A stretch of 32,598 nucleotides of DNA, taken from Trueperaceae bacterium (GTDB lineage: Bacteria; Deinococcota; Deinococci; Deinococcales; Trueperaceae). The translations under genes were made by a program, and so were the position numbers. Numbering within the stretch: position 1 is the stretch's first letter; every line of letters begins with the position of its first letter. Where the stretch lies: assembly GCA_035703635.1 (NCBI GenBank), contig DASSXV010000063.1:1-32598 (forward strand), given 5' to 3'. The notes beneath the pieces are model-generated. The model was not told the origin of the DNA. It ran no database searches and worked only from the letters and a program-made list of their open reading frames with translations. This document shows, one piece after another, positions 1 to 16,760 of this stretch.

Positions 1-1638
1 CGTCTCGACGGCGAAGATCGTCGCCGGGTTGCTGCGCGGGTCGAGCTTCGGGTTGCCCGTGAACGGGAAGGCGGTGGTGTCCTCGTTCCAGATCTCGACC
101 TGGAGTTCGTTGGCGTCACGCATGGTGAAGTGCGCGTTGCGTTCGCGGACCTGCACGTCGGTCGGGACACCTACGGCGGCCCAGTTGGCGGCTACGAGCT
201 GCGCGACGTCGGGCCACGGGCCGAATGCCGGCACTACGGAGAGCTCGATGCGCAGCGGCTTGCCGCTCGGCAGTAGGCGGTTGCCGTTGGCATCCTTCTT
301 CAGGCCGAGATCGTCGAGCATCTGGTTGGCGAGGGCCGGGTCGTACTCCGTGTACATCTTGGCGTACTCGTCACCCGGGTAGTAGGGGTGCCAAGGTGCG
401 GGAACGGGCTGGCGGATCTCGCCGAGGCCGAGGAACGCCGACTCGCGGATCTCTTCGCGGTCGACGGCGTGGGACATGGCGATGCGGAACTGCAGGTTCG
501 CTAGTACGTCGCCCAGTTCTGGGTCGAGGCGGTACTCCTGGTTGAACCAGACGGCGGCGTCGGAGCCACCGAAGCCTGGCCAGGTGATGACGTGGTAGTT
601 CGAGCGGTCGGAGTTCTCGACCAGCACGGAGTAGTTCGTCATCTGGATGTGGCGGGCCTGGAAGTCGAGCTCGCCGGCGACCGCAGCGAAGTTGAGCGCC
701 TCGACGTCGGCGAAGTAGCGGAACTGGACTTCGTCGATGTACGGGAGCTGGTTGCCGGCAGCGTCAACGCCGATGTAGTACGGGTTGCGGACGAGCTTGA
801 AGACCTGGTCTGAGATGGTCGAGTTCGACGGGACCCAGGCGGCCATCGTTGGGCGCGCGGGGTTCTCCGTTGGCATGGCCTTCGTCATGAACAGGTCGGT
901 CCAGCTAGCGAGGCCAGCGGCCTTGACGAGCTGGTCGAGGTCGGCTGCCGCCACGAAGTCAGGGTGGAACTGCTTGAGGTAGTGGCCTGGCAGGAAGGCC
1001 GCCAGGGTGCGGTCGCCGCCGTCACGGAAGGTGAGTTCCGTCATGAAGAGCGTGTTCGGGAAGTCGAACGTGATCTGGACGGTGTAGTCGTCCAGCGCGA
1101 CGACGGTGGCGGCGCTGCCGTCCTTGTTCTGGAACCAGGCGGGCACGCTCGGGGTGAGGTCCTTGTTGAGGAGCGTCTTCTCGTACCAGAACGTGATGGC
1201 GTCGGCCGTGAACGGCGCGCCGTCTGACCAACGGGCCCCCTCGCGGAGGTGCAGGGTCCAGGTATGGAAGTCAGCGGATGGCTCCCACGCGGAGACGATG
1301 TGCGGGACGATCTCGCTACCGTCTGAGCTGAAGCGGACGAGGCTGTCGTACACGACGCGCACGTAGTTGTTGGAGTCAGCCGGGCCGGTGAAGGCGCGGC
1401 GTAGGACGCCACCGTAGGTGCCGATCTCTTCGACGACGTCGATGACCAGTGGGTTGGTCGGCAGCCGCTCCGCGACGGGCGGAAGCTCGCCGCTGGCCAC
1501 GCGGGCGGCCAGGGACGGCGCCTCTTGGTACGTGCCCTGGGCGGAGGCGAAGCCAACGAGGAGCGCGGCTAGCGCCAGTAGTGCAAGCACCATCCGCCTC
1601 GAGTGGCCGTGCGCGAACGAAGTGAACCTGTCGGTCAT
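1..1638 (-). CDS. ABC transporter substrate-binding protein, family 5 (Opp/Dpp-like, oligosaccharide-binding type); 3' end runs off the window
   Basis: Not in the ORF track because there is no stop in the window. Translated manually from ATG 1638, preceded by SD AAGGAG: signal peptide MTDRFTSFAHGHSRRMVLALLALAALLVGFASAQ, then YQEAPSLAARVASGELPPVAERLP..IGTYGG, LREGARWSDGAPFTAD, RNPYY..VDAAGNQLPYID, typical of SBP_bac_5 sugar-binding subfamily. Confidence 0.92.
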   Translation of the reverse strand, partial: MTDRFTSFAHGHSRRMVLALLALAALLVGFASAQGTYQEAPSLAARVASGELPPVAERLPTNPLVIDVVEEIGTYGGVLRRAFTGPADSNNYVRVVYDSLVRFSSDGSEIVPHIVSAWEPSADFHTWTLHLREGARWSDGAPFTADAITFWYEKTLLNKDLTPSVPAWFQNKDGSAATVVALDDYTVQITFDFPNTLFMTELTFRDGGDRTLAAFLPGHYLKQFHPDFVAAADLDQLVKAAGLASWTDLFMTKAMPTENPARPTMAAWVPSNSTISDQVFKLVRNPYYIGVDAAGNQLPYIDEVQFRYFADVEALNFAAVAGELDFQARHIQMTNYSVLVENSDRSNYHVITWPGFGGSDAAVWFNQEYRLDPELGDVLANLQFRIAMSHAVDREEIRESAFLGLGEIRQPVPAPWHPYYPGDEYAKMYTEYDPALANQMLDDLGLKKDANGNRLLPSGKPLRIELSVVPAFGPWPDVAQLVAANWAAVGVPTDVQVRERNAHFTMRDANELQVEIWNEDTTAFPFTGNPKLDPRSNPATIFAVET

Positions 1639-1761
1639 TGGTACTCCTTCCGGGAGGTGAGCAACTACATGCCATCCGAGGCGCGGCTTTCCCCTTGCGG
1701 GGCCTAGAGTCGCCGTATGGATCGCCCAGTTCAGTCGGCCGTGGCGTGGCCGCACCGTCGT

Positions 1762-1777
1762 GCGTTAGCGATAACGC
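1762..1777. promoter_or_regulatory. Candidate LacI-family operator GCGTTAGCGATAACGC
   Basis: Near-perfect palindrome with central CG, just downstream of the SBP promoter; matches the site at 4370-4381. Confidence 0.75.
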
Positions 1778-1795
1778 GGATTGCTATGTGCCCGG

Positions 1796-1824
1796 AGGTT
1801 AGCACGGGCCATTCGGACGGTCAA
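1796..1824 (-). promoter_or_regulatory. sigma70-type promoter for the ABC transporter genes
   Basis: Minus strand TTGACC-17 nt-TAACCT with TG extended -10. Confidence 0.75.
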
Positions 1825-1924
1825 TACCGTTGCCACGTGGTCCAAAAAGTCGGCCGCATCTCGTCACTTCTCCGTGCAGGACGGCATCGCCGCCACTGGC
1901 GCTTCCAGGTTCGCCAGGGCGCGT

Positions 1925-3223
1925 TCAGGCGGCGCTCGTCCTTGCTTCGAGCCCTCCCTCGAGGAGTTCGACGAGCAACATCAAGTTGCGCAGGAGGTGG
2001 TATGGGTCCTTGACCGGCAAGCCGACCACGCGGTCAAGGGGCGCGCCGCTGCGGTCGCGGATCTGTATCCATTCCCCCACGTTGGCGTCGGGGTTGGGGA
2101 AAGTAGCGAACGTGTAGCTTTGGGTGCGGTCGTGAACGGCGCGCAGCTCTTCGTCGCCCGTCAACACGTAGCCCAACATGGCGGCGTAGAGCGTTTCAGA
2201 GTGGGGCCACCAGATCTTCGTGTCCCATGTTCCTAGGATGAGCGCCTCGAACGGGCCGTCTGCAGTGCCGCGAGGCGGCTGGCCGTCCTGCCCGACGTAA
2301 CGGAAGATACCGCCGTGAACTGGATCCCACCCGACGGCGAACGAACTCTTCACTACCTCTGCGGCCTTGGCGATGACGTCCGCGCGACCGTGCCTGGCGG
2401 CCTCCTCCATCAAGAACCACATCGATTCGATGGCGTGGCCTGGCGTGACGTGCGTGGTCAGCAGCCCAGAGCCGCCGCCGGAGCACGTGACCTCCCGCAC
2501 TAGCCCTGATGGCAAGACGAAGTTGTCGAGCACGTCGTCCGAGTGACCTTTGGCGTGCTGCGCGAAAGTCGTGGCGCGCTCGTCACCCCGCTCGACCAAC
2601 GCTAGCTCGAGCTCCTGAGCGACGTTGAGCAAGATCATGGGCTGGGCGTGCGCGCGGCACCCGGGAGGCAACGGGTACGGTTCGCTGCGCGCGTTACCGG
2701 CTGCCAAGCGCGCGACGACGCGGTCGTAGGCCGCAACGGCCTCATCGAGGTAGTGCCACTGGCCCGTCGCCCTTGCCGTCTCGCTCAGCCCCAAGGCAAC
2801 GAAGCAGTCAGCGAAGTAGCTGAGGTCGTGACCCTTGCCAGGCACGAACTCCTTCTTGGCGCCGTCCGCTGTGAGGAGGTAGCCGCTAGAGCCATCGTCG
2901 AGGTAGGCGTTGGCGCGCAGGAACTCCACCGTCTCGACCGCCCTGGTGGCGTACTCGTCCGCGCTGCCCGCCAACCAACCGCGGCGCGCCATCCGCGAGG
3001 CGTGCGCCATCAGCCACGCGAAGCGCCCCTGCGACCACACGAACTTGTCGTCGCTGACGCGTTCGCCTGTGACGTTGTCTAGGCAGGTGAAGACGCCACC
3101 GCGCTGCCTGTCACTCGGAGCGCCGAGCCAGAACGGCAGCGCCTGCTCCTCGAGTTGGTGCCTGTAGAAAGTGGCTAGCCTAGCTCGCTCGCTTGGTTCG
3201 AATGCGTCGGGGGTAGCGCTCAT
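1925..3223 (-). CDS. AGE-family epimerase (N-acylglucosamine 2-epimerase-like)
   Basis: Motifs GGVFTCLD, KFVWSQGR, PGHAIESMWF, WDTKIWWPHSE, GEW, KDPYHLLR. Start placed at ATG 3223 (SD AAGGAG) rather than 3271. Confidence 0.88.
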   Translation of the reverse strand: MSATPDAFEPSERARLATFYRHQLEEQALPFWLGAPSDRQRGGVFTCLDNVTGERVSDDKFVWSQGRFAWLMAHASRMARRGWLAGSADEYATRAVETVEFLRANAYLDDGSSGYLLTADGAKKEFVPGKGHDLSYFADCFVALGLSETARATGQWHYLDEAVAAYDRVVARLAAGNARSEPYPLPPGCRAHAQPMILLNVAQELELALVERGDERATTFAQHAKGHSDDVLDNFVLPSGLVREVTCSGGGSGLLTTHVTPGHAIESMWFLMEEAARHGRADVIAKAAEVVKSSFAVGWDPVHGGIFRYVGQDGQPPRGTADGPFEALILGTWDTKIWWPHSETLYAAMLGYVLTGDEELRAVHDRTQSYTFATFPNPDANVGEWIQIRDRSGAPLDRVVGLPVKDPYHLLRNLMLLVELLEGGLEARTSAA

Positions 3224-3311
3224 GCCTGACTCCTTAACAGCCGGACGTTGCCTGGCTGCGGTGTGCGGCAATTGAACCCCAGCCGCGCTGGTCTGACAAG
3301 CCGTCAGGGCG

Positions 3312-4268
3312 TCAAGTGATGGAGCGCGCCACCCTGAAACCCATGTGTCCCGTCGTGCTGTCCGGGGTGTTGAACGTCCTCGCGGCCACGCGGTAGCGGT
3401 TGCAGTAAGACGCGTGGCACAAGTAAGAACCGCCCTTCACCACTCGCCCAGGCCCGTCCGGCGGGCCGCTCGGGTCGGTAACGGGGCCACGCCCGCGTTG
3501 GTTGCCGAACCAATCCGAGCACCACTCCCACACGTTGCCGGCCGCGTTGTGAAGCCCGTGACCGTTCGGCTCGAACGACGTTACCGGCGCGGTGCCAAGG
3601 TAGCCGTCCGCCGCGCTGTTGTGCAGCGGGAACTCACCCTGCCAGATGTTGCAGCGGTGCTCGCCGTTGGGCCGCAGTCGATCGCCCCACGGGTAGCGGG
3701 CACCCTCCAGGCCGCCGCGCGCCGCGTACTCCCACTCCGCCTCGCTCGGCAACCGCGCGCCCGCCCAGGCGCAGTACGCCTGCGCGTCGTTCCACGAGAC
3801 GTGGACGACGGGGTGGTCGAGCCGCGCGTCGACGGCGGAGCCAGGGCCTTCCGGTTGGCGCCAGTTCGCGCCGAACACCTGACGCCACCAGCGCGCTGCC
3901 GGCACCGCCCTGTACGCCTTCGGAGCGGCGAGGAAGCCCTCGAACACGAACGACCAGCCGTAGGCCTCCGCCTCCGTCACGTGGCCGCTAGCTGCAACGA
4001 AGCGCGCGAAATCGGCGTTGGTAACGGCGTAGCGGTCGATCTCGAACGCCGAGAGCTGCACGGTGCGAACGGGCCCCTCACCGTCGGCTGCGAACCCTTC
4101 GCCTTCGGCGCCCATGGCGAAACTAGCTCCAGGTAGGCGTACGAAGCGCTCGCTTGGGTGGAGGCCGGCTTGGCCCGTTGGCGCCAGGGTTCGAGGCGGA
4201 GCGCTCTGCTCTTCCCTGCCCTCTTCGTGGCGCGGTAGGCAACAACTCTTGCTACTGGCGCTTGGCAC
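3312..4268 (-). CDS. Formylglycine-generating enzyme (sulfatase-modifying factor, SUMF1 type)
   Basis: HPVVHVSWNDA, RLPSEAEWEYAARGG, GNVWEW, KGGSYLCHASYCNRYRVAAR (both catalytic Cys present), GFRV; GTG start with SD AAGGAGG. Confidence 0.92.
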   Translation of the reverse strand: MPSASSKSCCLPRHEEGREEQSAPPRTLAPTGQAGLHPSERFVRLPGASFAMGAEGEGFAADGEGPVRTVQLSAFEIDRYAVTNADFARFVAASGHVTEAEAYGWSFVFEGFLAAPKAYRAVPAARWWRQVFGANWRQPEGPGSAVDARLDHPVVHVSWNDAQAYCAWAGARLPSEAEWEYAARGGLEGARYPWGDRLRPNGEHRCNIWQGEFPLHNSAADGYLGTAPVTSFEPNGHGLHNAAGNVWEWCSDWFGNQRGRGPVTDPSGPPDGPGRVVKGGSYLCHASYCNRYRVAARTFNTPDSTTGHMGFRVARSIT

Positions 4269-4311
4269 GCTGCCTCCTTTGCGTTACGCGCTCGTTTGAC
4301 GTCGGCTCGAC

Positions 4312-4340
4312 TTGACAGTCTAGTCGCAGCTACCTATCAT
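4312..4340 (+). promoter_or_regulatory. sigma70 promoter of the rightward sugar operon
   Basis: TTGACA-17 nt-TATCAT, near consensus. Confidence 0.85.
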
Positions 4341-4369
4341 CGCCTCACTGTAGCCACCGCGCGTTTTGT

Positions 4370-4381
4370 GTTAGCGGTAAC
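4370..4381. promoter_or_regulatory. Candidate LacI-family operator GTTAGCGGTAAC
   Basis: Imperfect palindrome with central CG about 30 nt downstream of the -10; same core as 1764-1775. Confidence 0.72.
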
Positions 4382-4515
4382 TCCGCGCTTCCGATGGGCA
4401 AGCACTAGACGGCCCTTCGGTAGGTACGGGCCGCGCGCAAGCAACGGTCAACGACTCCCTTGGTAAGGCGCGCTCTCCTCCACTTTGGGCCCTTAGCGCG
4501 CGAAAGGATAGCTGC

Positions 4516-5298
4516 ATGCCGAGTTCGCCACAACCAACCGCCCAGTTCAACGTCGACAAACTACCTGTCGCCGTCTACGCATCGACCGCTGACATGGGCC
4601 TGGCCGCCGCGCTCGCGGCGCGCGACGTCATCACTGAGTCCATCACGGCGCGCGGCGAGGCCAACGTCATTCTCGCTACCGGCAACTCGCAACTAGCCTT
4701 CCTGCACGCCCTTAGGGAGCTGCCGAACATCGACTGGCCGAAGGTGCGGATCTTCCACATGGACGAGTACCTCGGACTTCCGGCTGGGCACCCGGCCAGC
4801 TTCCCGAAGTTCCTGCTCGAGCACTTCATCGGCCACGTGCAGGTCGGTGCGTTCCACCCGGTACCAGGCGACGCCGACGCTGCGGAAACCAACTGCCGCG
4901 AGTACGAGGCGCTCCTGCGCGCCCACCCCGTCGACCTCGTCGCTCTCGGGTGGGGAGAGAACGGCCACCTGGCGTTCAACGACCCGCCTTACGCCTTCTT
5001 CGATGACCCGCACTGGGTGAAGGTGATCGAGCTGGCCCACGCTAGCCGCAAGCAGCAAGTCGGCGAGGGACACTTCCCCGACCTGGCCTCGGTGCCGACG
5101 CACGCCATAACCCTCACCATCCCGGCGCTGCTGGCAGCCAAGCAGGTCCTGTGCATCGTTCCAGAGGCCCGGAAGGTGGCGGCCGTTAGCGCCTGCCTCT
5201 ATGAACCCGTCGACGAGGCGCGCCCCGGCTCCATCCTGCGCACCGTCGACCACGCCCGCCTCTACCTCGACCCGGAATCTGGGAGGGGCGTGCGTTGA
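4516..5298 (+). CDS. NagB-like sugar isomerase/deaminase (glucosamine-6-phosphate deaminase family, divergent paralog)
   Basis: LATGNSQ, FHMDEY, GWGENGHLAFNDP, AITLTIP; SD AAAGGA. Confidence 0.85.
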   Translation: MPSSPQPTAQFNVDKLPVAVYASTADMGLAAALAARDVITESITARGEANVILATGNSQLAFLHALRELPNIDWPKVRIFHMDEYLGLPAGHPASFPKFLLEHFIGHVQVGAFHPVPGDADAAETNCREYEALLRAHPVDLVALGWGENGHLAFNDPPYAFFDDPHWVKVIELAHASRKQQVGEGHFPDLASVPTHAITLTIPALLAAKQVLCIVPEARKVAAVSACLYEPVDEARPGSILRTVDHARLYLDPESGRGVR

Positions 5299-6140
5299 AC
5301 AGCGCGGCAGGCGCTACCGCCGGCAAGGCGGAGCTCTTCGACCTGACCGGGCGCGTAGCCCTCATCACCGGCGCGACCGGGGTCCTTGGCGGCGCCATGG
5401 CGCGCGGTCTAGCCGCCCGCGGCGCCAAGGTAGCCGTCCTCGGCCGCAACGAGGAACGCGCCGCCGAGTTGGCCGCGCAACTTACGGCAGACGGCGCCGA
5501 GGCCATGCCCGCCCCGGCGGACGTGCTCGACCGCGCCAGCCTCGAGTCAGTGAAGGAACGCATAACCGCACGCTGGGGCCGCATCGACGTGCTCGTCAAC
5601 GCAGCTGGCGGCAACATGCCGGGCGCGACCCTGCAACCGGGCGCGAGCTTCTTCGACTTGGGCGCTGTGCCGATGCGCGAGGTCGTCGACCTCAATTACA
5701 TGGGCACCGTCCTGCCGATCCAGGTCTTCGGCCCCGCCCTCGCGGCTGGCGGCCACGGTTCGATAGTCAACATCTCGTCGATGGCGTCGCTGCGCTCCAT
5801 CACCAGAGTAGTTGGCTACGGCGCCGCGAAGGCGGCCATCGACAACCTCACCCGCTGGCTGGCGATGGCGTTCGGCACGGAGTTCGGCGGCGCGTTGCGC
5901 GTCAACGCCATGGCGCCAGGCTTCTTCATCGGCAACCAGAACCGCGCGCTGCTCCTCGAGCCGGACGGCTCGTTGACGCCTCGCGGCAAGCAGATCATCG
6001 ACCACACGCCCCTCGGGCGTTTCGGGGAGCCGGAGGAACTCGTAGGCACGCTCGTGTGGTTGTGCAGTGACGCCAGCCGCTTCGTGACCGGCGTCGTCGT
6101 GCCCGTAGACGGCGGTTTCGCGGTGACGAGCGGGGTGTGA
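5295..6140 (+). CDS. uxuB: SDR-family oxidoreductase, probable D-mannonate oxidoreductase / fructuronate reductase (SDR-type UxuB)
   Basis: TGATGVLG, NAAGGN, NISSM, YGAAK catalytic motif, RVNAMAPGFF..QNRALL, HTPLGRFG; TTG start overlaps upstream TGA; context with uxaC and uxaE. Confidence 0.75.
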   Translation: MNSAAGATAGKAELFDLTGRVALITGATGVLGGAMARGLAARGAKVAVLGRNEERAAELAAQLTADGAEAMPAPADVLDRASLESVKERITARWGRIDVLVNAAGGNMPGATLQPGASFFDLGAVPMREVVDLNYMGTVLPIQVFGPALAAGGHGSIVNISSMASLRSITRVVGYGAAKAAIDNLTRWLAMAFGTEFGGALRVNAMAPGFFIGNQNRALLLEPDGSLTPRGKQIIDHTPLGRFGEPEELVGTLVWLCSDASRFVTGVVVPVDGGFAVTSGV

Positions 6141-6147
6141 CCTGGCG

Positions 6148-7242
6148 ATGAAGAGTGGGGGACGAGCACGGGGGTATGCCGGCACGCTGCAGTCGCAGCG
6201 CGTGACCAACGCAGACGTCGCGCGCGCGGCCGGCGTGTCTTCCATGACGGTTTCGCGCGTCGTGAACGGCAACGGTCGGGTGAGCGACGAGACGCGTGAA
6301 CGCGTCCGCCGCGCCATCGAAGAGCTTGGCTACCAACCCAACCAGCTCGCGCGCTCCCTCACGCAAGGCCGCACCCGCACCATCGGCATCGTCGTGCCCG
6401 ACATAACCAACCCGTTCTTTCCAGAGATCGTGCGCGGGGCGGAGGACGCCGCGTGGGAGGCGGGCTACACCGTTGCGCTAGCCAACGCCGTGGAGGACCA
6501 GGCCCGCGAACGCGCAGCGCTGCGCAACCTAGCTGGCCACCGCGTGGACGGCGTCGTCCACTGCTCCCCACGCCTCCCAGACCACGAGCTGGCCGAGCTC
6601 TTGACCTCGCATACGGCGGCCGTGCTCATCAACCGTCACGCCGGCCCTGCTCCCGCGGTCAGCCTCATGGTCGACGACCCGCTAGGTGCCGATATCGCCG
6701 TGAAGCACCTGGTTGGCGCGGGCCGCACCCGCCTCGTGCACTTGGGCGGGCCGACCCGCTCGGCTAGCGCGGGCTACAGGCGCAGTGGCTTCCTCGCGGC
6801 AGCCAAGTCAGCGGGACTGCCAGTCGACAGCGAGTTGTTGCTCAACTGCGAACCGACGGAGGAAGCTGGCTACGCGGCCGTGTCTCACCTGCTATCAAGC
6901 TCGAAGCGCGAGTTCGACGGCCTCGTCGCTTACAACGACCTCGGCGCGCTAGGCGCCATCAACGCCATCAAACACGCTGGCTTGCGCGTGCCTGATGACG
7001 TCGCGGTGATCGGTTGCGACGACATCCGCATCGCCAGCCTCATCTCCCCTTCGCTCACCACCCTGCGCATCGAGAAGTACCGAATGGGGCACCTCGCCAT
7101 TCAGACGATCTTCGAGCTGCAGCGGGGCGGTCAACCAACCGATGTGACGTTCAAGCCCGAACTGATCGTCCGCGAAAGCGCGCCGTGGGTCCACGCGCAC
7201 GCCGCAGCGGCCACTACCGTAAGCAAGCCCCCAGAGGAGTAA
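6148..7242 (+). CDS. LacI-family transcriptional regulator
   Basis: HTH VTNADVARAAGVSSMTVSRVVN, LGYQPNQLARSL, PDITNPFF, VPDDVAVIGCDD, PSLTT; true start could be slightly downstream. Confidence 0.95.
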   Translation: MKSGGRARGYAGTLQSQRVTNADVARAAGVSSMTVSRVVNGNGRVSDETRERVRRAIEELGYQPNQLARSLTQGRTRTIGIVVPDITNPFFPEIVRGAEDAAWEAGYTVALANAVEDQARERAALRNLAGHRVDGVVHCSPRLPDHELAELLTSHTAAVLINRHAGPAPAVSLMVDDPLGADIAVKHLVGAGRTRLVHLGGPTRSASAGYRRSGFLAAAKSAGLPVDSELLLNCEPTEEAGYAAVSHLLSSSKREFDGLVAYNDLGALGAINAIKHAGLRVPDDVAVIGCDDIRIASLISPSLTTLRIEKYRMGHLAIQTIFELQRGGQPTDVTFKPELIVRESAPWVHAHAAAATTVSKPPEE

Positions 7243-7245
7243 CGC

Positions 7246-8766
7246 ATGAGAAGCGACGCCGACCACAACGACCCCATCGCCAGCACGCGCGCCGCGCGCG
7301 AACACGGCCGCGGCGTGGTGCAAGCAAGCGCCCGCGCGCACGACGGCCTGGGTTTCTGGGCCGAGGTCGAAGGCGAAAACGTGCGCATCGCCATCGCGGC
7401 GCAGGCAGGCGATCAGCGCTTGGCTTCACTGGCGGGAGAGCGGCACGCCGCGCCAGACGTGACCGTCGTGAGGGCAGCGCCCAGCTGCGCCGCCCTTCGC
7501 ACCCTGCGCGAGTTGCTCCCTTCCCTCACGCCTCGCCCGCTCGGCCTTGCGACGAGCGCCGGCTTCGGCGACCGGCTAGGGTTGGCGACGCCCGGTCACG
7601 TCGACGCCATGCGCGCCGCCGGCGCTACGGGGGTTGCCCCCATCTTCGCGCAGCAGAGCATGCGCGAGAACGCTCGCACCGGCCGCAACCCCCAAGAAGT
7701 CGTCGACGACGCCACCTGGGGCGCCTTCCTCGCCGGTTGGACCGGGCCGGTTGGCGCGGACGCCGATCACCTCAAGACAGAGGATGACATCGACCTCTGC
7801 CTGGCGGCCGGCTACTCGTTCTTCACCTTCGACCCTGGCGCGCACGTGAACGCAGAAGCGGACGTCATGACCAGCGCGGACCTGGAGCTGGCGTTCCAAG
7901 CGCTGCCATGGCACGACCTCGACACCTCGCCTGCCGACTTGAAGGCGCGCCTGGCGGGCGCCAGCCTCGACGCTGGTGAGCGCCTCGTAACGTTCGGGCC
8001 GGGAGAGCTAGAGCGCGCGGCCGTCAAGTACGGTCGGGCCGTCGCCCACGTAGCGCGCATGGCAGATCACTTGCGGCGGGCCGCCACCTACCCCACTGAG
8101 GTCGAGGTTTCCGTCGACGAGACGCCGACGGCCACGTCGTTGGCCGAGCACCTCTACTTCGCCACTGAGCTCAAGCGCCTCGGGGTCGAGTGGGTGTCGT
8201 TGGCGCCGCGCTTCGTCGGCGATTTCGAGAAGGGCGTCGAGTACCTTGGCGACCTCGGCCTGCTCTCCAGCAACCTCATCGGGCACGCGGCCATCGCGCG
8301 CCAGCTCGGGCCGTACAAGCTGAGCCTGCACTCCGGCTCCGACAAGTTCTCCGCCTACCCGATCGCCGCCGCGGCAGCAGACGGGCTCGTGCACTTGAAG
8401 ACCGCGGGGACGAGCTACTTGGAGGCGTTGCGGGTAGTCGGCGCGGTCCAACCCGAGTTGCTGCACCGCATCGCCCGCCTCGCCATCCAGCACTTCGCGG
8501 AGGACGTGAAGAGCTACCACGTGTCTGGCAGCCCCGCCGGCATGCCGAACCTCGGCGCCTTGCCCGGCACTGCGATCGGAGCGCTGCTCGAGCAGTTCGA
8601 TTCGCGGCAAGTGCTGCACGTCACGTTCGGCTCCGCGCTCAAGGCTCACGGCGCGGAGTTGCGCGCCGTTCTGCAGAGCCACCCTGCTGCCTACCGCGCG
8701 GCGCTCAGGCGCCACTTCGAGCGCCACCTCGCGCCGTTCGTCGTCGCCAAGGGCGCCCCGGCATGA
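7246..8766 (+). CDS. uxaE: Tagaturonate/fructuronate epimerase
   Basis: GFGDRLGLATPGH, AQQSMRE, GADADHLK, SVDE, APRFVGDFEKG, HSGSDK, HLKTAGTSYLEALR; SD GAGGAG. Confidence 0.9.
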   Translation: MRSDADHNDPIASTRAAREHGRGVVQASARAHDGLGFWAEVEGENVRIAIAAQAGDQRLASLAGERHAAPDVTVVRAAPSCAALRTLRELLPSLTPRPLGLATSAGFGDRLGLATPGHVDAMRAAGATGVAPIFAQQSMRENARTGRNPQEVVDDATWGAFLAGWTGPVGADADHLKTEDDIDLCLAAGYSFFTFDPGAHVNAEADVMTSADLELAFQALPWHDLDTSPADLKARLAGASLDAGERLVTFGPGELERAAVKYGRAVAHVARMADHLRRAATYPTEVEVSVDETPTATSLAEHLYFATELKRLGVEWVSLAPRFVGDFEKGVEYLGDLGLLSSNLIGHAAIARQLGPYKLSLHSGSDKFSAYPIAAAAADGLVHLKTAGTSYLEALRVVGAVQPELLHRIARLAIQHFAEDVKSYHVSGSPAGMPNLGALPGTAIGALLEQFDSRQVLHVTFGSALKAHGAELRAVLQSHPAAYRAALRRHFERHLAPFVVAKGAPA

Positions 8767-10184
8767 CGGCGGCGAGCGGCGCTTGGACGCTTAACCCTGA
8801 CCGCGGCTTCGCGCCTGACCCCGGGCAACGCTCGTTGGCGCGGGCACTGTACGGCGCAGTCGCCGACCTCCCGCTGCTGTCGCCTCACGGCCACGTCGCG
8901 CCCGGTCTGCTCCTGGACGACGCTCCCATGGCCGACCCGGCGACGACCTTCGTCGTTCCAGACCACTACCTGCTGCGGATGCTCTTCAGCCAGGGCGTGC
9001 AGCTCGAGCGCCTCGGCGTCGCCCGCAGCGACGGCGCTCCCGTCGAGACGGACCCGCGTGAGATCTGGCGCGAGTTCGCCGCGCATTACCACCTCTTCGC
9101 AGGCACCCCTTCCGGGCTGTGGTTGAAGCACGAGCTCGTCGACCTCTTCGGCCTAGACGAGCGCCCGAGCGCCGCGACGGCCGACCGCACCTTCGACCAC
9201 CTGAGCGCCAAGCTGGCGCAACCAGAGTTCCGCCCCCGCGCCCTCTTCCGTCGCTTCGGGATAGAACTGTTGGCGACGACGGACGCCGCCACGGACGACC
9301 TCACAGAGCACGTAGCGCTGCAGGCGGCCGGCATGCCGATCGTGCCGACTTTCAGGCCGGACGCCGTGATCGACCCGACCCGCGGTGATTTCGTGGAGGC
9401 GACTGAACTCCTTGCCGAACGTAGTGGCGTCGCCGTCACAGACTACGCGTCGTACCTAGAGGCGTTACGTCAGCGCCGCGCGGCCTTCAAGGCGGCCGGT
9501 GGAACGGCCACGGACCACGCGGCACTCACGGCGGACGTAGTGGAGCTACCCGCTGCAGAGAGGGTCTTCGCGCGCGTCCTGGCAGGGGACGCCAGCCAGG
9601 CTCACCGACAGGCGTTCGCGGCGCACATGTTGCTGCAGATGGCGCGCATGAGCGCAGACGACGGCCTCGTCATGCAACTCCACGTAGGTTCGCTGCGCGA
9701 CCACCACCGCCTCACCTTCGAGCGCTTCGGGCGGGACAAAGGCGCCGACATGCCGATAGCCACGAACTGGACGCGCGAGTTGCGGCCACTGCTCGAAGAA
9801 CTCGGCACCCACCCGCGCTTCCGCATGGTGCTTTACACGCTCGACGAAACGACCTACGCGCGTGAGTTGGCGCCCTTGGCTGGCTTCTACCCCACCCTGC
9901 GCCTGGGCGCTCCGTGGTGGTTCTTCGACTCGGTGCTCGGCATGGAACGCTACCTAGACGCCGTGAGCGAGACGGCAGGCATCTACAACCTGGCGGGCTT
10001 CGTCGACGACACGCGGGCGTTCCCTTCCATCCCTGCCCGGCACGACGTCTGGCGGCGCGTAACGTGCAACTGGTTGGCCGGCCGCGTCGTGCGTGGCCTG
10101 ATCGACGAGGACGAGGCCCCTGGCTTGGCGCGTGCGCTCGCGTACGACCTCACCAAGGAGACTTACCGTCTAGGCGGGGCTTGA
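8763..10184 (+). CDS. uxaC: Glucuronate (uronate) isomerase
   Basis: Start at ATG 8763 (ATGA overlap with uxaE stop); SPHGH, PDHY, TFRPD, MQLHVG, LGAPWWFFDS, GFVDDTRAF, ARHDVWRR. Confidence 0.93.
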   Translation: MTAASGAWTLNPDRGFAPDPGQRSLARALYGAVADLPLLSPHGHVAPGLLLDDAPMADPATTFVVPDHYLLRMLFSQGVQLERLGVARSDGAPVETDPREIWREFAAHYHLFAGTPSGLWLKHELVDLFGLDERPSAATADRTFDHLSAKLAQPEFRPRALFRRFGIELLATTDAATDDLTEHVALQAAGMPIVPTFRPDAVIDPTRGDFVEATELLAERSGVAVTDYASYLEALRQRRAAFKAAGGTATDHAALTADVVELPAAERVFARVLAGDASQAHRQAFAAHMLLQMARMSADDGLVMQLHVGSLRDHHRLTFERFGRDKGADMPIATNWTRELRPLLEELGTHPRFRMVLYTLDETTYARELAPLAGFYPTLRLGAPWWFFDSVLGMERYLDAVSETAGIYNLAGFVDDTRAFPSIPARHDVWRRVTCNWLAGRVVRGLIDEDEAPGLARALAYDLTKETYRLGGA

Positions 10185-10978
10185 GCGTCCCATACCTGCA
10201 CTTCAGCGTCGACGACGTCTTCGGCTGCGTCGAGGACCTGTTCACCGGGGGCTATGCATCGCCGTGGCAGCAGCCGACCTTCGCCTACTTGCGGCGGCTC
10301 CATGAGGCGTACGGTCTCGTAACGAGCCTCTACCTCTTCGCTGGCACCGCCACGTCGAGGTGGGAGTTGGCTGACGCGGACGAGCGCCACCGCCGCGCCT
10401 TCGCTGCCGCGTCTACTTGGCTCCGTTTCGGGTTCCACGCAGCAGACGACGCCACGCGCTACTCGCAAGACGCCGTCTCACCGACCGTAGCCGCACGACA
10501 TTACCGGACGATCGTGGCGAGCATCGCGCGTTTCGCTGGCGTCGAGTCGGTCGACCGCGCGCCACGCACTCACTACTTCACGGGGTCGGAAGCCACCGTG
10601 CGCGCCTGGCAGGGCGAGGAGTTGGGGCCGTTGGGGTTACTCACTCCTGATGACGAGCGTGAGGAGGCTTACCACCTCGCACCTGCAGCTAGCGCCGCGA
10701 TCAGGGCGCGTGGCACGGCCCGCGACGAGGCTCACGGCTTGTGGCTGTTCCGGACGGACGTGCGCTTGGAACGCAGCCCGGACGTCACCTCCACGCTGCG
10801 CGTCGCAGACGCGGCCCTTGAGACGGTCGGCGCGGTGCACGCCTTCACGCATGAACAGTACTTGCCAGAGGCCGCCGTTCGCAAGCGCCTCGAAGCGCTG
10901 GCGCGTTACCTCGCGCAGCTGGGGATAACTGGCGCTTTTCCGCTCGACGCCGCTAGGCGGGCGGGAGCTAGGGGTTAG
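10181..10978 (+). CDS. Hypothetical protein with polysaccharide-deacetylase (CE4/NodB)-like motifs
   Basis: TTG start at 10181 overlapping uxaC stop (TTGA); HFSVDD, SLYLF, WLRFGFH, PRTHYF, FTHE in the order of CE4 motifs; no signal peptide. Confidence 0.6.
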   Translation: MSVPYLHFSVDDVFGCVEDLFTGGYASPWQQPTFAYLRRLHEAYGLVTSLYLFAGTATSRWELADADERHRRAFAAASTWLRFGFHAADDATRYSQDAVSPTVAARHYRTIVASIARFAGVESVDRAPRTHYFTGSEATVRAWQGEELGPLGLLTPDDEREEAYHLAPAASAAIRARGTARDEAHGLWLFRTDVRLERSPDVTSTLRVADAALETVGAVHAFTHEQYLPEAAVRKRLEALARYLAQLGITGAFPLDAARRAGARG

Positions 10979-11942
10979 CCGCTTCGAACGCGGCCGGCGC
11001 AGATAGCGCCCTGAAGTTCCAGTGACCCTCGCGGCGTGGGGGCCAGATCACCGCCGTGGCGCGCCCTGCGATGGCCATGGCGTCTACCGGCCCGAAGTAG
11101 CGCGAGTCCTCCGACCCGCCAGCCGAGCGGTTGTCACCCATCACGAAGTACTTGCCGTCTGGCACCACGAAGTCGAGCACGACCGGCGTGCCCTCCACCG
11201 TGCCTGCCGGCACTGAGATGCTACTGACCACGTTGCCGTAGAAGAGCTGCACACGCGCGTCATCGACGCTAACGCTGGCCGGGAGGAAGCCGCCCATCGG
11301 CAGCATGGGCACCGAGTTGCCCTTCGGCGTCGTCTCGAAGCCCATCACGAGCGCGGCTACTTGACCACCGCGCACGACCACGAGCGGAAAGTCGACGGCC
11401 GCCACGCGCACCGTTCCAGGTTCGGTGATGAAACCCTGGTCGATGGCGACGTCGTTCACGTACACCTGGCCGCGCTCGATGCGGACGCGGTCGCCTGGCA
11501 GGCCGATCACGCGCTTGATGAAGAAGTTGCGCTTGCCCGATTCGAGGGCCGTCGGGGCGTTAGCTGGCTCCCGCAACACGACGACTGCCCCGCGCTCGTA
11601 CTTGCCAAGGACACCGACGCGGCGCAGCCACGTGTCGTACTTAGGGATGAAGACGCGGTCGCCGGTGAGCAGGGCCTGCAGAAGGTTGCCGCGGCCGTTG
11701 CCACCGTCGAGGTTAGGTTCCATCGAGGTGCCGACGACGCCAACGGTAGTGAACAGGAAGGTCACGACGAGGAACGCGATGACGAGCGCTTCCGCGTAAC
11801 CACGCACCTCGCGCCAGAAGCGTTGTTGGAAGGTCAAGGGCGCAACTGGCGCCTTGCCTGCGGAGCCACCACCGCCAGGGCGAAGGCGCGCGCGGGCGGC
11901 GGCGCGCGGGGAGTCCGGGCGAGTCGAGTCTGGTTTCGTCAT
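10968..11942 (-). CDS. lepB: Signal peptidase I
   Basis: TM segment then GTSMEP (Ser), FIKRVIGLPGD (Lys), YFVMGDNR..SEDSRYFG. Confidence 0.95.
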   Translation of the reverse strand: MTKPDSTRPDSPRAAARARLRPGGGGSAGKAPVAPLTFQQRFWREVRGYAEALVIAFLVVTFLFTTVGVVGTSMEPNLDGGNGRGNLLQALLTGDRVFIPKYDTWLRRVGVLGKYERGAVVVLREPANAPTALESGKRNFFIKRVIGLPGDRVRIERGQVYVNDVAIDQGFITEPGTVRVAAVDFPLVVVRGGQVAALVMGFETTPKGNSVPMLPMGGFLPASVSVDDARVQLFYGNVVSSISVPAGTVEGTPVVLDFVVPDGKYFVMGDNRSAGGSEDSRYFGPVDAMAIAGRATAVIWPPRREGHWNFRALSAPAAFEAANP

Positions 11943-12074
11943 GACGGTCTAGCCTACCGCGAACATCGCAGTTACCGTACTATCCTGCAGCAGGGGCAGG
12001 CAGAAGTGGTTCGAGGCGGCCGTAACGTCACGGCGCAGTTGACCCGTGCCAGCTCGCAACCGAAAGGAACAAGC

Positions 12075-12896
12075 ATGCTCCGTCGTTCAACGCTCTTGCT
12101 CGTCCTCACTCTCGTCACCGCCGCCGCGGCGCAGCGACCGTTCGTCGTGCCCAACTACTACGTCTCCCAGCTGCCGCTCCTCGTTTCCGGGGTTCCGGCC
12201 TTCGGTGAGTTGACGCCGGAGGACGGCCAGAACTACAAGGACGGTTCGCGCGTCGACCTCTACCAGTTCGAGGGCGAGGCGGGTAGCACCGCGACGCTCA
12301 CGCTGAGCAGTTACGACTTCGACACCTACCTGAGCGTCTTCGACCCAGACGGCTTCCGCCTCGAGTACAACGACGACGGCGACGCTCTCTCTAGCGACGC
12401 GTACGAGTCACGGCTCGACCTTTACCTCGACTACTCCGGCAAGTACACCGTAGTCGTCAGCGGCTACGCGGACTACGATCTCGGCGCCTATACGCTCGAG
12501 TTGGTCATGCAGGGCGCCGCCTCCTTCGCTGGCACGGAGTCGCTCACGGTTCCAGGCAGCGTCACCGGCATGTTGAGCAGTGACGATGGCGCCGTACCAG
12601 GCGGTTGGACCGGCCCAGGCAAGGGATACGACTTCACAGTCACGGAGAAGACCGTCATGAGGATCGACGCTGCCTCCAACGACTTCGACACTTACCTCTA
12701 CCTCTTCACGAGCGATGGTTACCTCATGAACTCCAACGACGACGCCGATTACAGCGAAGCGTCAGGCTACGCGACGGACTCGATGATGTTCATCGCCCTC
12801 GACCCCGGCTCCTACTTCGTGTACGTCAGCACCTGGAACGGCGACGACGTTGGAGCGTTCACGCTCAGCTTCGAGGAGTACGTTCCGAAGCGCTAA
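12075..12896 (+). CDS. Secreted protein with two pre-peptidase C-terminal (PPC)-like domains
   Basis: ATG 12075 with SD AAAGGA; signal peptide MLRRSTLLLVLTLVTAAAAQ; two repeats S..FDTYL.(V/L)F..DG....NDD...G.Y.V.VS....G.(Y/F)TL. Confidence 0.8.
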   Translation: MLRRSTLLLVLTLVTAAAAQRPFVVPNYYVSQLPLLVSGVPAFGELTPEDGQNYKDGSRVDLYQFEGEAGSTATLTLSSYDFDTYLSVFDPDGFRLEYNDDGDALSSDAYESRLDLYLDYSGKYTVVVSGYADYDLGAYTLELVMQGAASFAGTESLTVPGSVTGMLSSDDGAVPGGWTGPGKGYDFTVTEKTVMRIDAASNDFDTYLYLFTSDGYLMNSNDDADYSEASGYATDSMMFIALDPGSYFVYVSTWNGDDVGAFTLSFEEYVPKR

Positions 12897-12938
12897 GCCC
12901 ACCGCGGCCCACACGCGCCGCGCCAACTACCGGCTAGC

Positions 12939-15164
12939 ATGGCGGAGCGCATGACAGTCGACCGCACCGCCCCATCCCTCTTCGAGTCACCCGCGACCGA
13001 ACCACTCGCCGCCCGCATGCGGCCAAGGACCCTGGCTGAGTTCATCGGCCAGGGTCACATCCTTGGGCCAGGGCGGTTGCTGCGGCGCGCCATCGAGGCG
13101 GATCAGCTCTCGTCGCTCATCCTCTACGGGCCGCCTGGGACGGGCAAGACCACCCTCGCCCGCGTGATCGCCAACTCCACGCGTGCGCGCTTCACGGCCA
13201 TCAACGCGGTCTTGTCCGGCGTGAAGGAGATCCGCGAGGCCGTTACGGCGGCGCAGTCCTCGCGCCGCGCAGGCGTCAAGACCATCTTGTTCGTCGACGA
13301 GGTGCACCGCTTCAACAAGGCGCAGCAGGACGCGCTCTTGCCGTGGGTGGAGAACGGCACCGTCGTGCTCATCGGCGCCACCACCGAGAACCCGTTCTTC
13401 GAGGTCAACAAGGCCCTCGTGAGCCGCAGCCGCGTCTTCCGGCTACTCCCGCTCGAGGAGGACGACCTCCGCGCCGTGGCAAGGCAGGCGCTGGCAGACG
13501 CGGAGCGCGGCTACGGCCGCCGCGCAGTCGAGATCGACGAAGAGGCCTTGAGTCATCTCGCGAACGTCGCGAACGGCGACGCCCGCGCGCTCCTCAACGC
13601 TCTCGAGTTGGCTGTCGAAACGACCCCGCCCGTCGACGGGCGCGTTCACGTGACCGTCGCCGTCGCGGAAGAGTCGATCCAACGCCGCGCCGTCCTGTAC
13701 GACAAGGAGGGCGACGCTCACTTCGACACCATCAGCGCCTTCATCAAGAGCGTGCGCGGTTCGGACCCGGACGCCGCCCTCTACTGGCTAGCCAAGATGG
13801 TCTACGCAGGCGAGGACCCACGCTTCATCTTCAGGCGCCTCCTCATCCTCGCCAGCGAGGACATCGGCTTGGCGGACCCACGGGCCCTCAGCCATACGGC
13901 CGCCGCCGCGCAGGCCTACGATTACGTCGGTTTACCCGAGGGCCGCTACCACCTCGCGCAAGCGACCTTGTACCTAGCCACGGCGCCGAAGTCGAACAGC
14001 ACGATGGCGTTCTTCGACGCGTTGGCTGCGGTCGAGAGCGAGCGCGAGGAGGAGGTGCCCGTCCACCTGCGCGATGGCAGCCGGGACAAGGACACCCTCG
14101 GCCACGGCGCAGGCTACGCCTACCCTCACGCTTACCGCGACCACTGGGTGGCGCAGCAGTACCTGCCGGAGTCGCTGCAGGGCAAGGTCTTCTACGCTCC
14201 GAGCGGCAACGGCTTCGAGGCGAGCATCGCGGCCGACGTGACGCGGCGCCGGGAAGCGCAACTCGCCGCGATGCTCGAACCGGAGGCCGCCCCGGAGATC
14301 ATGACCGTCGCTCCGCGCTTCGGGCAGCGCGAGCGCTGGCTCGAGCGGGCGGTTTCGTCGCGGGGCCAGCGCCTTGGCGAGGTGCGCGACGACCTCTTCG
14401 AGTTAGCGCCGCCCGCCCCGCATCACGTCGTGCTCGACCTGAGGCCAGGTAGTGGGCTGATCACTTGGGAAGCGGTGAGGCGCACGCCGGAGGGTCAAGT
14501 TTGGGCGCTCGAGCCGGACGCCAAGGCCGCGGCCGAGTTGGAGAGCCAGGCGGCCAACCTCTCCGAGCTGACTCGCCCCATCTTGTTGCGCACCGACGTG
14601 CTTGACTTGGACGCCGATGCGCTTGGCGGGGTGCGCTTCGACGAGGCGTACGGCCGCGGCTGGTTGGCCGCCCTCCCTCCCCTGCCTGACCTGCAGGCAG
14701 CGTTCTCGCGCCTGCGGGCGGTCATGGCGCCTGGCGGAGTCGTCGTGCTGGCGGAAGTCGACAGGCGGCGGGCGCAACGCCTGCATGCGTTGGTGGACCT
14801 TTCTGACCGACCGGCGCTCGCCGCTAGCGTTGCCGCGGCCGAGGAGAGCATCTATTCCGGTACGGCAGTTGGGGCCGCTGAGCGCGTAGGGACGGCCCCC
14901 GAGTCGGTCGTGGCGGCCATCGAGAGCGCCGGCTTCTCACAGGTGCGGTTAACGCCCAAGGTGTATTACGACCAGCGAAGACTGCCGCGCAGCACGATCG
15001 TCGATTGGTTCGCGGTTGGCGGTGAACGGGCCTCCTACGCCGATCACTTGGGCAGGCACCTGAGCGCCGGGGAGCTGGCGGCCGTCAAGGAAGCGTTCAT
15101 GCTGCAGTTGGCCGACCGCGAGGTGCGGTGGGGTACGACCTACTACTTCGTGCGCGCGACATGA
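12939..15164 (+). CDS. rarA: Replication-associated recombination protein A (RarA/MgsA AAA+ ATPase) with a C-terminal methyltransferase-like extension
   Basis: PLAARMRP, GPPGTGKT, LFVDEVHRFNKAQQD, GATTENPFF, ISAFIKSVRGSDPDAA, ASEDIG, YPH, QQYLP; about 290 extra C-terminal residues. Start 12939 or 12951. Confidence 0.93.
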   Translation: MAERMTVDRTAPSLFESPATEPLAARMRPRTLAEFIGQGHILGPGRLLRRAIEADQLSSLILYGPPGTGKTTLARVIANSTRARFTAINAVLSGVKEIREAVTAAQSSRRAGVKTILFVDEVHRFNKAQQDALLPWVENGTVVLIGATTENPFFEVNKALVSRSRVFRLLPLEEDDLRAVARQALADAERGYGRRAVEIDEEALSHLANVANGDARALLNALELAVETTPPVDGRVHVTVAVAEESIQRRAVLYDKEGDAHFDTISAFIKSVRGSDPDAALYWLAKMVYAGEDPRFIFRRLLILASEDIGLADPRALSHTAAAAQAYDYVGLPEGRYHLAQATLYLATAPKSNSTMAFFDALAAVESEREEEVPVHLRDGSRDKDTLGHGAGYAYPHAYRDHWVAQQYLPESLQGKVFYAPSGNGFEASIAADVTRRREAQLAAMLEPEAAPEIMTVAPRFGQRERWLERAVSSRGQRLGEVRDDLFELAPPAPHHVVLDLRPGSGLITWEAVRRTPEGQVWALEPDAKAAAELESQAANLSELTRPILLRTDVLDLDADALGGVRFDEAYGRGWLAALPPLPDLQAAFSRLRAVMAPGGVVVLAEVDRRRAQRLHALVDLSDRPALAASVAAAEESIYSGTAVGAAERVGTAPESVVAAIESAGFSQVRLTPKVYYDQRRLPRSTIVDWFAVGGERASYADHLGRHLSAGELAAVKEAFMLQLADREVRWGTTYYFVRAT

Positions 15165-15171
15165 CGATTGT

Positions 15172-16736: not shown

Positions 16737-16760
16737 CTTGCTGTAGGCTGCCTAACACTG

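Follow-up and report, generated by a model that had tools for sequence, protein, structure and literature searches.

The window analysed here is a stretch of 32,598 nucleotides (nt) from a Trueperaceae bacterium (Deinococcota; assembly GCA_035703635.1, contig DASSXV010000063.1, positions 1 to 32,598 of the forward strand), with a G+C content of about 66-70%. Its first 10,978 nt carry a set of sugar-catabolic genes that was read as the visible, right-hand part of a LacI-repressed island for the use of an acidic, sulfated, probably acetylated oligosaccharide of hexuronate and N-acetylhexosamine. We consider this reading about evenly poised between right and wrong. Its substrate would resemble a glycosaminoglycan, or be a sulfated heteropolysaccharide from microbes or algae. 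A sulfated uronate-plus-hexosamine oligosaccharide was taken as the most economical explanation because the same mixed gene set recurs in two phyla and because a formylglycine-generating enzyme (FGE) belongs to the regulon. The amino-sugar branch is less certain than the uronate branch.

On the plus strand, six genes are packed into a single operon in which neighbours either overlap or lie no more than 7 nt apart. They encode a NagB-like protein, a putative amino-sugar deaminase/isomerase (4516..5298; PF01182, 1.3e-23); a D-mannonate oxidoreductase of the short-chain dehydrogenase/reductase (SDR) type, that is, a UxuB-type fructuronate reductase (5295..6140; NF006132, 360.3 bits against a cut-off of 281); a LacI-family repressor (6148..7242; PF00356, PF13377 and PF00532); UxaE, a tagaturonate/fructuronate epimerase (7246..8766; PF16257, 2.4e-119, 399.6 bits); UxaC, a glucuronate/galacturonate isomerase (8763..10184, start ATG 8763; NF002794, 477 bits against 387); and, last, a 265-residue protein assigned by fold only to the CE4/NodB-like group (10181..10978). 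Three genes lie to the left on the minus strand: FGE (3312..4268; PF03781, 1.2e-82, 277.9 bits), an AGE-family enzyme (1925..3271; PF07221, 1e-28; start TTG 3271 or ATG 3223) and a family-5 solute-binding protein (SBP_bac_5, SBP5; PF00496, 1.4e-52). The open reading frame (ORF) of the binding protein spans 1..1755, likely 1..1638, and its C-terminus lies beyond the left edge of the window. All the genes named in a first-pass annotation of this DNA were recovered at the places it had given, by ORF listing and by Pfam and NCBIfam matches. Both overlaps that it claimed are real, with TTGA in each: the TTG start of uxuB at 5295, 7 nt downstream of a GGGAGG, overlaps the TGA stop of the nagB-like gene, and the TTG start of the last ORF at 10181 overlaps the TGA of uxaC. 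The ATG of uxaC likewise overlaps the TGA of uxaE (ATGA), and the gaps between uxuB and lacI and between lacI and uxaE are 7 and 3 nt. These start/stop overlaps argue for co-expression by design.

Regulation was examined through a search with GTTAGCGNTAAC, allowing no more than one mismatch, which found only two sites in the 32.6 kb. These are the operator-like palindromes GTTAGCGATAAC at 1764..1775, about 125 nt upstream of the binding-protein start, and GTTAGCGGTAAC at 4370..4381, inside the divergent spacer between the FGE and nagB-like genes. Four strand-matches were obtained where 0.25 would be expected, a number not attained in any of 100 shuffles, so that the shared operator described earlier holds up. 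The second site lies about 30 nt downstream of the -10 element of a sigma-70-like promoter (TTGACA-17-TATCAT, plus strand, 4312..4340; 11 of 12 positions match), the sole promoter-like site in 1..11200 (0.5 expected). The two palindromes would tie three transcription units to one repressor. The LacI protein, which has an HTH_LacI and a sugar-binding domain, is the presumed binder of both. It would repress through the site at 4370-4381, which falls within the leader transcribed ahead of the nagB-like gene and looks towards the FGE-AGE unit on its other side, and through the site at 1764-1775 upstream of the operon of an ATP-binding cassette (ABC) importer. Among the loci of NagB-like relatives (numbered L001 onwards), the syntenic locus L001 encodes a LacI 59% identical to that of the window. 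In L002 a related perfect palindrome, GTTAGCGCTAAC, stands just upstream of a LacI gene that heads an operon of LacI, SBP5, ABC, NagA and NagB-like genes.

Gene neighbourhoods were collected for the best 80 of 597 NagB-like relatives, one genome per species, with up to 10 kb fetched on each side, and every ORF of these 80 loci was compared with the window proteins and with seed proteins. The closest counterparts came from two phyla. L001 (Trueperaceae) starts with OppB/C, OppD/F, NagA, NagB-like, sulfatase and a cupin-containing ORF; continues with genes for an NAD-dependent epimerase/dehydrogenase and for an enolase-superfamily acid-sugar dehydratase, then AGE, an unknown 451-residue ORF and a second sulfatase; and ends with UxuB-like (69% identical to that of the window), LacI and the opening residues of an ORF resembling, by eye, the N-terminus of the window's UxaE, at the point where L001 is cut. 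L007 (Anaerolinea) starts with LacI, SBP5 (62%), two permeases, two ATPases, sulfatase, NagA and NagB-like genes, and ends with three URO-D/MtaA-like genes, UxaC, UxaE, UxuB-like (plus strand, tblastn 55%, start 16803), a LarA-like putative hexonate epimerase and Gnd. L008 holds two sulfatases, NagA, NagB-like and a second NagB-like gene. Within the window's own clade of 10 relatives, NagA was found near 6, sulfatase near 3, SBP5 near 3 and a uronate gene near 3; these counts are lower bounds, as 4 of the 10 contigs are 5.5 kb or shorter. The expectation that the combination is kept in other genomes was borne out in part: it is partly conserved, as in L001 and L007, and neither FGE nor the CE4-like gene was found in any of the 80 loci.

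Over all 80 loci, the commonest partners were GFO/IDH/MocA oxidoreductases (27) and NagA-like proteins (23, all within 7 kb, with a median position directly upstream), followed by GH4 (10), Nramp-like transporters (10), UxuB-like SDR (8), UxuA (7), AGE family (7), ROK (6), UxaC (4), PcRGLX-like (4), SBP5 (3) and canonical NagB (2). None of the tested partner families was present in 20 loci. A uronate gene (UxaC, UxaE, UxuB-like or UxuA) lay within 10 kb in 12 of the 80, spread over at least 6 phyla, and no kinase family other than ROK recurred in 4 or more. UxuA/UxuB without UxaC in the fetched stretch was seen in 7 loci (from L001, L031, L045, L048, L051, L057, L067 and L079). L079 (Cytobacillus), which has no UxaC in the locus, carries a regulator-type ROK, an SSF transporter, AGE, ceramidase-like, NagB-like, NagA, SIS_2, UxuA, SDR and GntR genes. 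All 7 NagA partners tested passed TIGR00221, narrowly (228-294 bits against 225.65). A canonical NagB gene stands immediately upstream of the NagB-like gene in two Verrucomicrobiota loci (8967-9992 and 9974-10783 in L049; 9125-9952 and 9986-10774 in L078); these canonical proteins are 59-60% identical to the canonical NagB of the window, and an IlvD/Edd-family dehydratase comes next in L049. The pairing suggests that the canonical and NagB-like paralogues are not redundant.

Two further arrangements were noted around NagB-like genes. Up to three URO-D/MtaA-like genes, absent from the window, lie between NagB-like and UxaC in Anaerolineae (10626-14057 in L007 and 1334-4828 in L006) and might serve the demethylation of O-methylated uronates. 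In L031, L045, L051 and L067 (at about 7000-18500; three Gemmatimonadota metagenome-assembled genomes and one gammaproteobacterial one), an Nramp-family gene, NagB-like and a PcRGLX-like gene (about 900 residues, lyase/hydrolase-fold) stand in this order, accompanied by a pyrroloquinoline quinone dehydrogenase, Amidohydro_2, UxuA and a UxuB-like SDR, and L045 has a TonB-dependent receptor and a SusD-like protein upstream. It is unusual to find an Nramp-like transporter among sugar genes.

The uronate branch is fully covered by family assignments that exceed curated cut-offs. UxaE matches the solved epimerase 9lhu at 3.3e-97 and Cohnella UxaE (6il9) at 1.3e-73. The UxaC match covers positions 14-458 of the 459 of the NF002794 profile. 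For the SDR, NF006132 is a model of the 'subfamily' type, and its 360.3 bits do not guarantee substrate specificity. By these family assignments the uronate half of the locus is the known UxaE-type isomerase route. The UxaE-type hexuronate isomerase pathway was reportedly first described in Thermotoga maritima by Rodionova and colleagues in 2012. In comparison with that pathway, the window has UxaC, UxaE and the SDR UxuB in one operon, its genes are interleaved with those for the NagB-like, LacI and CE4-fold proteins, and they are co-regulated with FGE and AGE. A role of UxaE relatives as tagatose-6-phosphate/fructose-6-phosphate 4-epimerases acting after a galactosamine-6-phosphate (GalN-6-P) deaminase was considered and dropped: the window's UxaE is very close to genuine uronate epimerases, and the titles and abstracts searched gave no support.

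FGE matches the Thermomonospora curvata enzyme 6s07 at 1.1e-114 and human FGE at about 1e-104. Its motif LCHASYCNRYR aligns with LCHESYCNRYR, and both active-site cysteines are present. By these matches and residues it is an authentic FGE of the aerobic, copper- and O2-dependent type, predicted to mature Cys-type sulfatases; a signal peptide was not evident in it. The placement of FGE under a sugar-type repressor implies Cys-type sulfatases in the same regulon, and the sulfatases in the closest syntenic loci would explain why FGE is there. In the sulfatases of relatives the Sulfatase domain begins no more than 14 residues from the ORF start, which leaves no room for a signal peptide and so fits uptake followed by cytoplasmic desulfation, together with a cytoplasmic FGE. 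Classification of these sulfatases against solved structures and NCBIfam was attempted and set aside as not diagnostic, with all scores below the cut-offs. The AGE-family protein matches the solved AGEs 6f04, 1fp3 and 2gz6 at about 1e-43, against 1e-5 for cellobiose 2-epimerase, and its PGHxIE and HxxR motifs line up with theirs. It is a Pfam member (101 bits against 23.4) and falls below the NF052547 equivalog cut-off (192.4 against 600 bits). FGE, AGE and LacI are ordinary members of their families.

For the binding protein, ATG 1638 is the likely true start, followed by a signal peptide (translation MTDRF...RRMVLALLALAALLVGFASAQG). The protein belongs to family 5 (Opp/Dpp-type, cluster C), and its gene would open an ABC-importer operon continuing past the left edge of the window. 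Homologues with 59-65% identity (tblastn) occur in the NagB-like loci L002, L003 and L007. Its nearest solved proteins are T. maritima 'OppA' (5IPW, 1.4e-100), a protein without known ligand, and SPH1118 of Sphingomonas sp. A1 (8e-66). SPH1118 binds pectin oligosaccharides, and Arg57, Arg438 and Trp594 are stressed for acidic-sugar binding (PMC9314435). Both are large cluster-C family-5 binding proteins with an arginine equivalent to Arg57. A ligand assignment from these residues was tried and not adopted, one of the two checkable arginines being retained.

The NagB-like protein stands apart from canonical NagB. Its nearest structure is B. subtilis NagB (2bkv, 5e-34), with 6-phosphogluconolactonases at about 1e-15, and it is about 25% identical to a canonical NagB encoded elsewhere in the window. 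That gene lies 12 kb away, with an HD-domain protein and ABC exporters as neighbours and with no nagA or transporter nearby. At least 7458 relatives were found at E of 1e-3 or better among 8000 candidates scored; those with names are mostly labelled 'glucosamine-6-phosphate deaminase', many are from Chloroflexota, and the clade spans Chloroflexota, Deinococcota, Verrucomicrobiota, Actinomycetota, Bacteroidota, Cyanobacteriota, Bacillota and Gemmatimonadota. A tree was built from 80 NagB-like sequences, with three canonical NagBs as outgroup, and in it the two groups were split with a Shimodaira-Hasegawa-like approximate likelihood ratio test (SH-aLRT) value of 100. The window protein is sister to the L001 copy (69% identical, SH-aLRT 99), and the two fall inside an 11-row, otherwise Chloroflexota clade (SH-aLRT 98-99). 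This nesting of Deinococcota suggests that the locus may have been transferred between phyla.

Compared with canonical NagB (2bkv, 1cd5), the NagB-like protein is of the same fold family and keeps the catalytic motifs DEY and GxGxxGH and the anion-site Arg and Lys, whereas it forms a separate clade with its own invariants and an insertion, and sits beside canonical NagB in two loci. Across 25 family members Asp83, His151, Arg178 and Lys220 do not vary, and they line up with their counterparts in canonical NagB; the Glu of FNEP is replaced by Asp. Arg178 and Lys220 align with what we take to be the phosphate-binding residues Arg172 and Lys208 of E. coli NagB, and the short insertion falls in what is presumably the lid region. 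Family-specific invariants are TGNSQ, FHMDEY, GEGHF, EARK and ILR, and four extra basic residues (His81, His186, Arg219 and Arg242) are invariant in the family. Fused proteins were also found. One type, NagB-like::UxuB-like (5 members on 2 contigs), is 46% identical to the window's NagB-like protein and 48% over 272 residues to its UxuB; the others join NagB-like to a KDPG-aldolase-like domain (1), xylose-isomerase-like TIM barrels (3, in both orders) and SIS_2 (1), and fusions or neighbours with GH20, GH4 and NagA occur. Fused gene calls derived from assemblies may be artefacts, and still show conserved adjacency. Assignment as a 6-phosphogluconolactonase, prompted by the GFO-type neighbours and by the Edd/IlvD neighbour in L049, was set aside as less likely: the NagB profile scores 108 bits against 55, the PDB matches stand at 5e-34 against 9e-16, and FNxP and DEY are of the NagB type. 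No description of this NagB-like clade was found in the titles and abstracts searched.

The last ORF had been called deacetylase-like in the first-pass annotation, and the term is reasonable for its predicted fold, although it gave no match to Pfam (E of 1e-3 or better, PF01522 included), to NCBIfam or to PDB sequences (E of 10 or better). An AlphaFold2 model (pLDDT 89.3, pTM 0.90) was searched with Foldseek, and the top matches were CE4/NodB deacetylases and esterases (probability 1.00, E of 4e-6 or weaker; query TM-score 0.45-0.59, identity 8-13%), among them ArnD, chitooligosaccharide deacetylases and the deacetylase domain of heparan-sulfate NDST1. The family comprises 1568 representative clusters with the conserved motifs HxSxDD, WLRFGFH, PRxH and FTHE, and its alignment shows invariant Asp11-Asp12, His41, His86, His131 and His224 (sequence positions only). 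Like CE4/NodB deacetylases, the protein has a DD motif after the first strand and several invariant His within a similar predicted fold; unlike them, it has no PF01522 or other Pfam match, and its TM-scores are modest. When 20 longer members were compared with Pfam, BppU_N was found in 3, Laminin_G_3 in 2, and GH106, Big_2/fn3 and a polysaccharide-synthesis domain in 1 each, with no further domain in the other 12. Such partners are the signature of a carbohydrate-active catalytic module. The protein was therefore treated as a candidate metal-dependent (N- or O-) deacetylase. It and the NagB-like clade are the two components of the locus without a characterised close relative. In the relatives P0156, P0176 and P0199 the CE4-fold part is the C-terminal domain of proteins carrying the phage baseplate domain BppU_N, and some members may be deacetylases or esterases that act on polysaccharides as parts of phage tails. 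The CE4-fold ORF (plus strand) and a signal peptidase I gene (minus strand) converge with an 11-nt overlap at 10968-10978, where a simple scan found no terminator-like site.

The following scheme was drawn up for the island. The secreted binding protein and an Opp-type ABC transporter, with permease and ATPase genes expected to the left of the window as in L001, L002, L003 and L007, would import the oligosaccharide; sulfatase and NagA genes would lie on that side too. Cytoplasmic Cys-type sulfatases matured by FGE, expected from L001, L007 and L008, would desulfate it, and the CE4-fold protein could, to judge from its fold, remove acetyl groups. Glucuronate and galacturonate would be converted by UxaC to fructuronate and tagaturonate, tagaturonate by UxaE to fructuronate, and fructuronate by the SDR UxuB to mannonate. 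N-acetylhexosamine would pass through AGE (N-acetylmannosamine/N-acetylglucosamine, ManNAc/GlcNAc), a NagA deacetylase and the NagB-like deaminase, with a kinase assumed to be encoded elsewhere. A glycosaminoglycan-type locus had been offered earlier as the alternative to an amino-uronate pathway, and comparative evidence now favours it: in the nearest loci with synteny, cytoplasmic sulfatases and NagA accompany the set of ABC, NagB-like, AGE, UxuB, LacI and UxaC/UxaE genes. The relation of the binding protein to SPH1118, a binder of acidic oligosaccharides, fits the scheme, as do the NagA scores and the fusions or neighbours with GH20, GH4 and NagA, which are in keeping with ordinary hexosamine chemistry.

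Several observations weigh against this scheme. The import, sulfatase and part of the amino-sugar steps rest on relatives that are just 59-70% identical, and the window ORFs sent to Pfam gave no match to a kinase, sulfatase, NagA, lyase or glycosidase family, in agreement with the earlier remark that this part of the locus lacks a kinase. Sulfatase genes occur in 6 of the 80 loci, and FGE and CE4-like genes in none. For the L001 and L007 sulfatases the best matches, under all cut-offs, were choline sulfatases and arylsulfatases and not a characterised glycosaminoglycan sulfatase. The binding protein resembles 5IPW, a putative oligopeptide binder (1e-100), more than it does SPH1118; among the residues stressed for SPH1118 it retains the Arg57 equivalent and has Phe at that of Arg438, and the Trp594 region lies beyond the window. 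The NagB-like protein fails the TIGR00502 equivalog model (108 bits against a cut-off of 236.9), while the canonical NagB of the window (17773-18573, plus strand) passes it with 270.5 bits. Finally, NagB-like proteins are often tied to ketose-processing enzymes (SDR, TIM-barrel, SIS_2, UxaE) that would be superfluous after fructose-6-phosphate.

Three other explanations were weighed against the sulfated-oligosaccharide island. The genes may lack a common substrate. An ordinary paralogue of glucosamine-6-phosphate (GlcN-6-P) or GalN-6-P deaminase, together with AGE and a housekeeping FGE, would then simply have accreted, under one repressor, to a hexuronate operon made up of UxaC, UxaE, UxuB, an acetyl-esterase and an ABC importer of the oligogalacturonide type. 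The diverse contexts of the NagB-like genes fit this, with GFO/IDH/MocA in 27, GH4 in 10 and Nramp-like in 10 of the 80 loci and 20 without partners, as does the absence of FGE and CE4-like genes from all of them. The binding-protein relatives include a pectin-oligosaccharide binder, and the GH106 rhamnosidase fused to one CE4-like member suggests pectin-type O-deacetylation. Such an accretion is nevertheless doubtful, for the two palindromes place all three transcription units (the ABC operon, FGE-AGE and the nagB-like/uronate operon) under a common regulator, L001 and L007 show the same mixed set although they come from different phyla, and the start/stop overlaps argue for designed co-expression. 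The explanation put first in the first-pass annotation was a route for amino-uronates, in which AGE would epimerise N-acetylamino-uronates (the uronates of GlcNAc, ManNAc and N-acetylgalactosamine: GlcNAcA, ManNAcA, GalNAcA), CE4-like or NagA-like proteins would deacetylate them, and the NagB-like protein would deaminate the products to fructuronate or tagaturonate for UxaE and UxuB, giving mannonate without a kinase. Parts of the evidence lean this way: the translational coupling of nagB-like and uxuB in the window, the single-polypeptide NagB-like::UxuB-like and NagB-like::KDPG-aldolase-like proteins elsewhere, uronate genes near NagB-like in 12 of 80 loci and at least 6 phyla (UxuA/UxuB occurring without UxaC, as in L079), canonical NagB alongside in L049 and L078 and also in the window, ROK in only 6 of 80 loci with no other kinase family in 4 or more, and the extra invariant residues His81, His186, Arg219 and Arg242. 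No catabolic route for amino-uronates was found among the matches listed in the titles and abstracts searched. We regard the proposed pathway as unlikely. Its NagA partners score as GlcNAc-6-phosphate deacetylases in 7 of 7 cases, if barely over the cut-off; the invariant Arg and Lys of the presumed phosphate site would accommodate a 6-O-ester more readily than a C5 carboxylate; the closest matches of AGE act on neutral GlcNAc/ManNAc; and the GH4, GH20 and ROK contexts and NagA fusions resemble ordinary hexosamine metabolism. FGE and the sulfatases of the syntenic loci are left unexplained by it. Four of the UxuA/UxuB loci without UxaC carry Amidohydro_2, which we assume, from Bh0493-type isomerases, could be an alternative uronate isomerase, and co-location is equally expected for a polymer of separate uronate and hexosamine units.

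A sulfated analogue of the classical hexosamine route was also considered, in which the NagA/NagB-like pair would turn GlcNAc-6-sulfate into GlcN-6-sulfate and then a ketose-6-sulfate, with the sulfatase acting last and no kinase needed. Sulfate is close to phosphate in shape, and the anion-site Arg and Lys are retained. A sulfatase gene adjoins NagA or NagB-like in L001, L007 and L008, FGE and the nagB-like operon share an operator, kinases are rare in the loci, and the NagB-like and NagA partners both diverge from the canonical models. This route is nonetheless highly improbable: a sulfatase is near in just 6 of 80 loci, the sulfatases compared could be placed in no carbohydrate-sulfatase subfamily, the idea offers no account of the tie to UxuB, UxuA and UxaE, and no GlcN-6-sulfate deaminase appeared in the titles and abstracts searched. 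Apart from the fate of the whole island, the NagB-like clade was proposed, as a tentative and rather doubtful suggestion, to be a deaminase/isomerase for a 6-substituted 2-amino sugar other than GlcN-6-P, most attractively 2-amino-2-deoxy-hexuronates, with a 6-sulfated amino sugar as the second possibility. If so, keto-uronate products (fructuronate/tagaturonate) would pass directly to UxuB/UxaE, allowing kinase-free recycling of amino-uronate polymers, and the clade could reveal the first catabolic route for amino-uronic acids. Whatever its substrate, its partners (UxuB fusions, UxuA, SIS_2, TIM-barrel proteins and adjoining canonical NagB) suggest that the label 'glucosamine-6-phosphate deaminase' may be wrong in many genomes.

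The favoured island of LacI-controlled genes for a sulfated uronate-hexosamine oligosaccharide was compared with known systems. Glycosaminoglycan utilisation loci are known in Bacteroides, Streptococcus and Streptobacillus. Both they and the present locus pair sulfatases (here deduced from FGE and from syntenic loci), uronate and NagA/NagB-type hexosamine catabolism and an oligosaccharide importer. The window differs in using the saturated-uronate route (UxaC) and an Opp/Dpp-type ABC importer, the sulfatases of its relatives are cytoplasmic and resemble choline sulfatases or arylsulfatases, and such loci occur in Deinococcota and Chloroflexota. The scanned ORFs of the window, L001, L002, L003, L006, L007, L008, L012 and L019 contained no polysaccharide lyase, GH88/GH105 or KduI/KduD, and UxuA, KdgK and KdgA do not occur in the visible part of the locus. 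Titles and abstracts searched held nothing pertinent on UxaE with sulfatase, nor on the combination of AGE, UxuA, NagB and sulfatase. If this reading is right, Deinococcota and Chloroflexota would break down sulfated acidic glycans by an importer-first strategy with cytoplasmic sulfatases, hydrolases and isomerases. It would differ from the lyase-based loci of gut Bacteroides and would bear on how sulfated polysaccharides are turned over in soil, sediment and saline environments. The CE4-fold family, which has no Pfam model and is recurrently fused to phage baseplate domains, is a candidate new carbohydrate esterase family.

The other scanned ORFs of the window look unrelated to the locus and include a signal peptidase, an MgsA-type ATPase, major facilitator superfamily and ABC exporters, and a glycosyltransferase. 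The MgsA/RarA-type AAA+ ATPase ORF (12939-15164, plus strand, 741 residues) carries a C-terminal extension of about 300 residues without family match beyond its known domains, which stop near residue 435.

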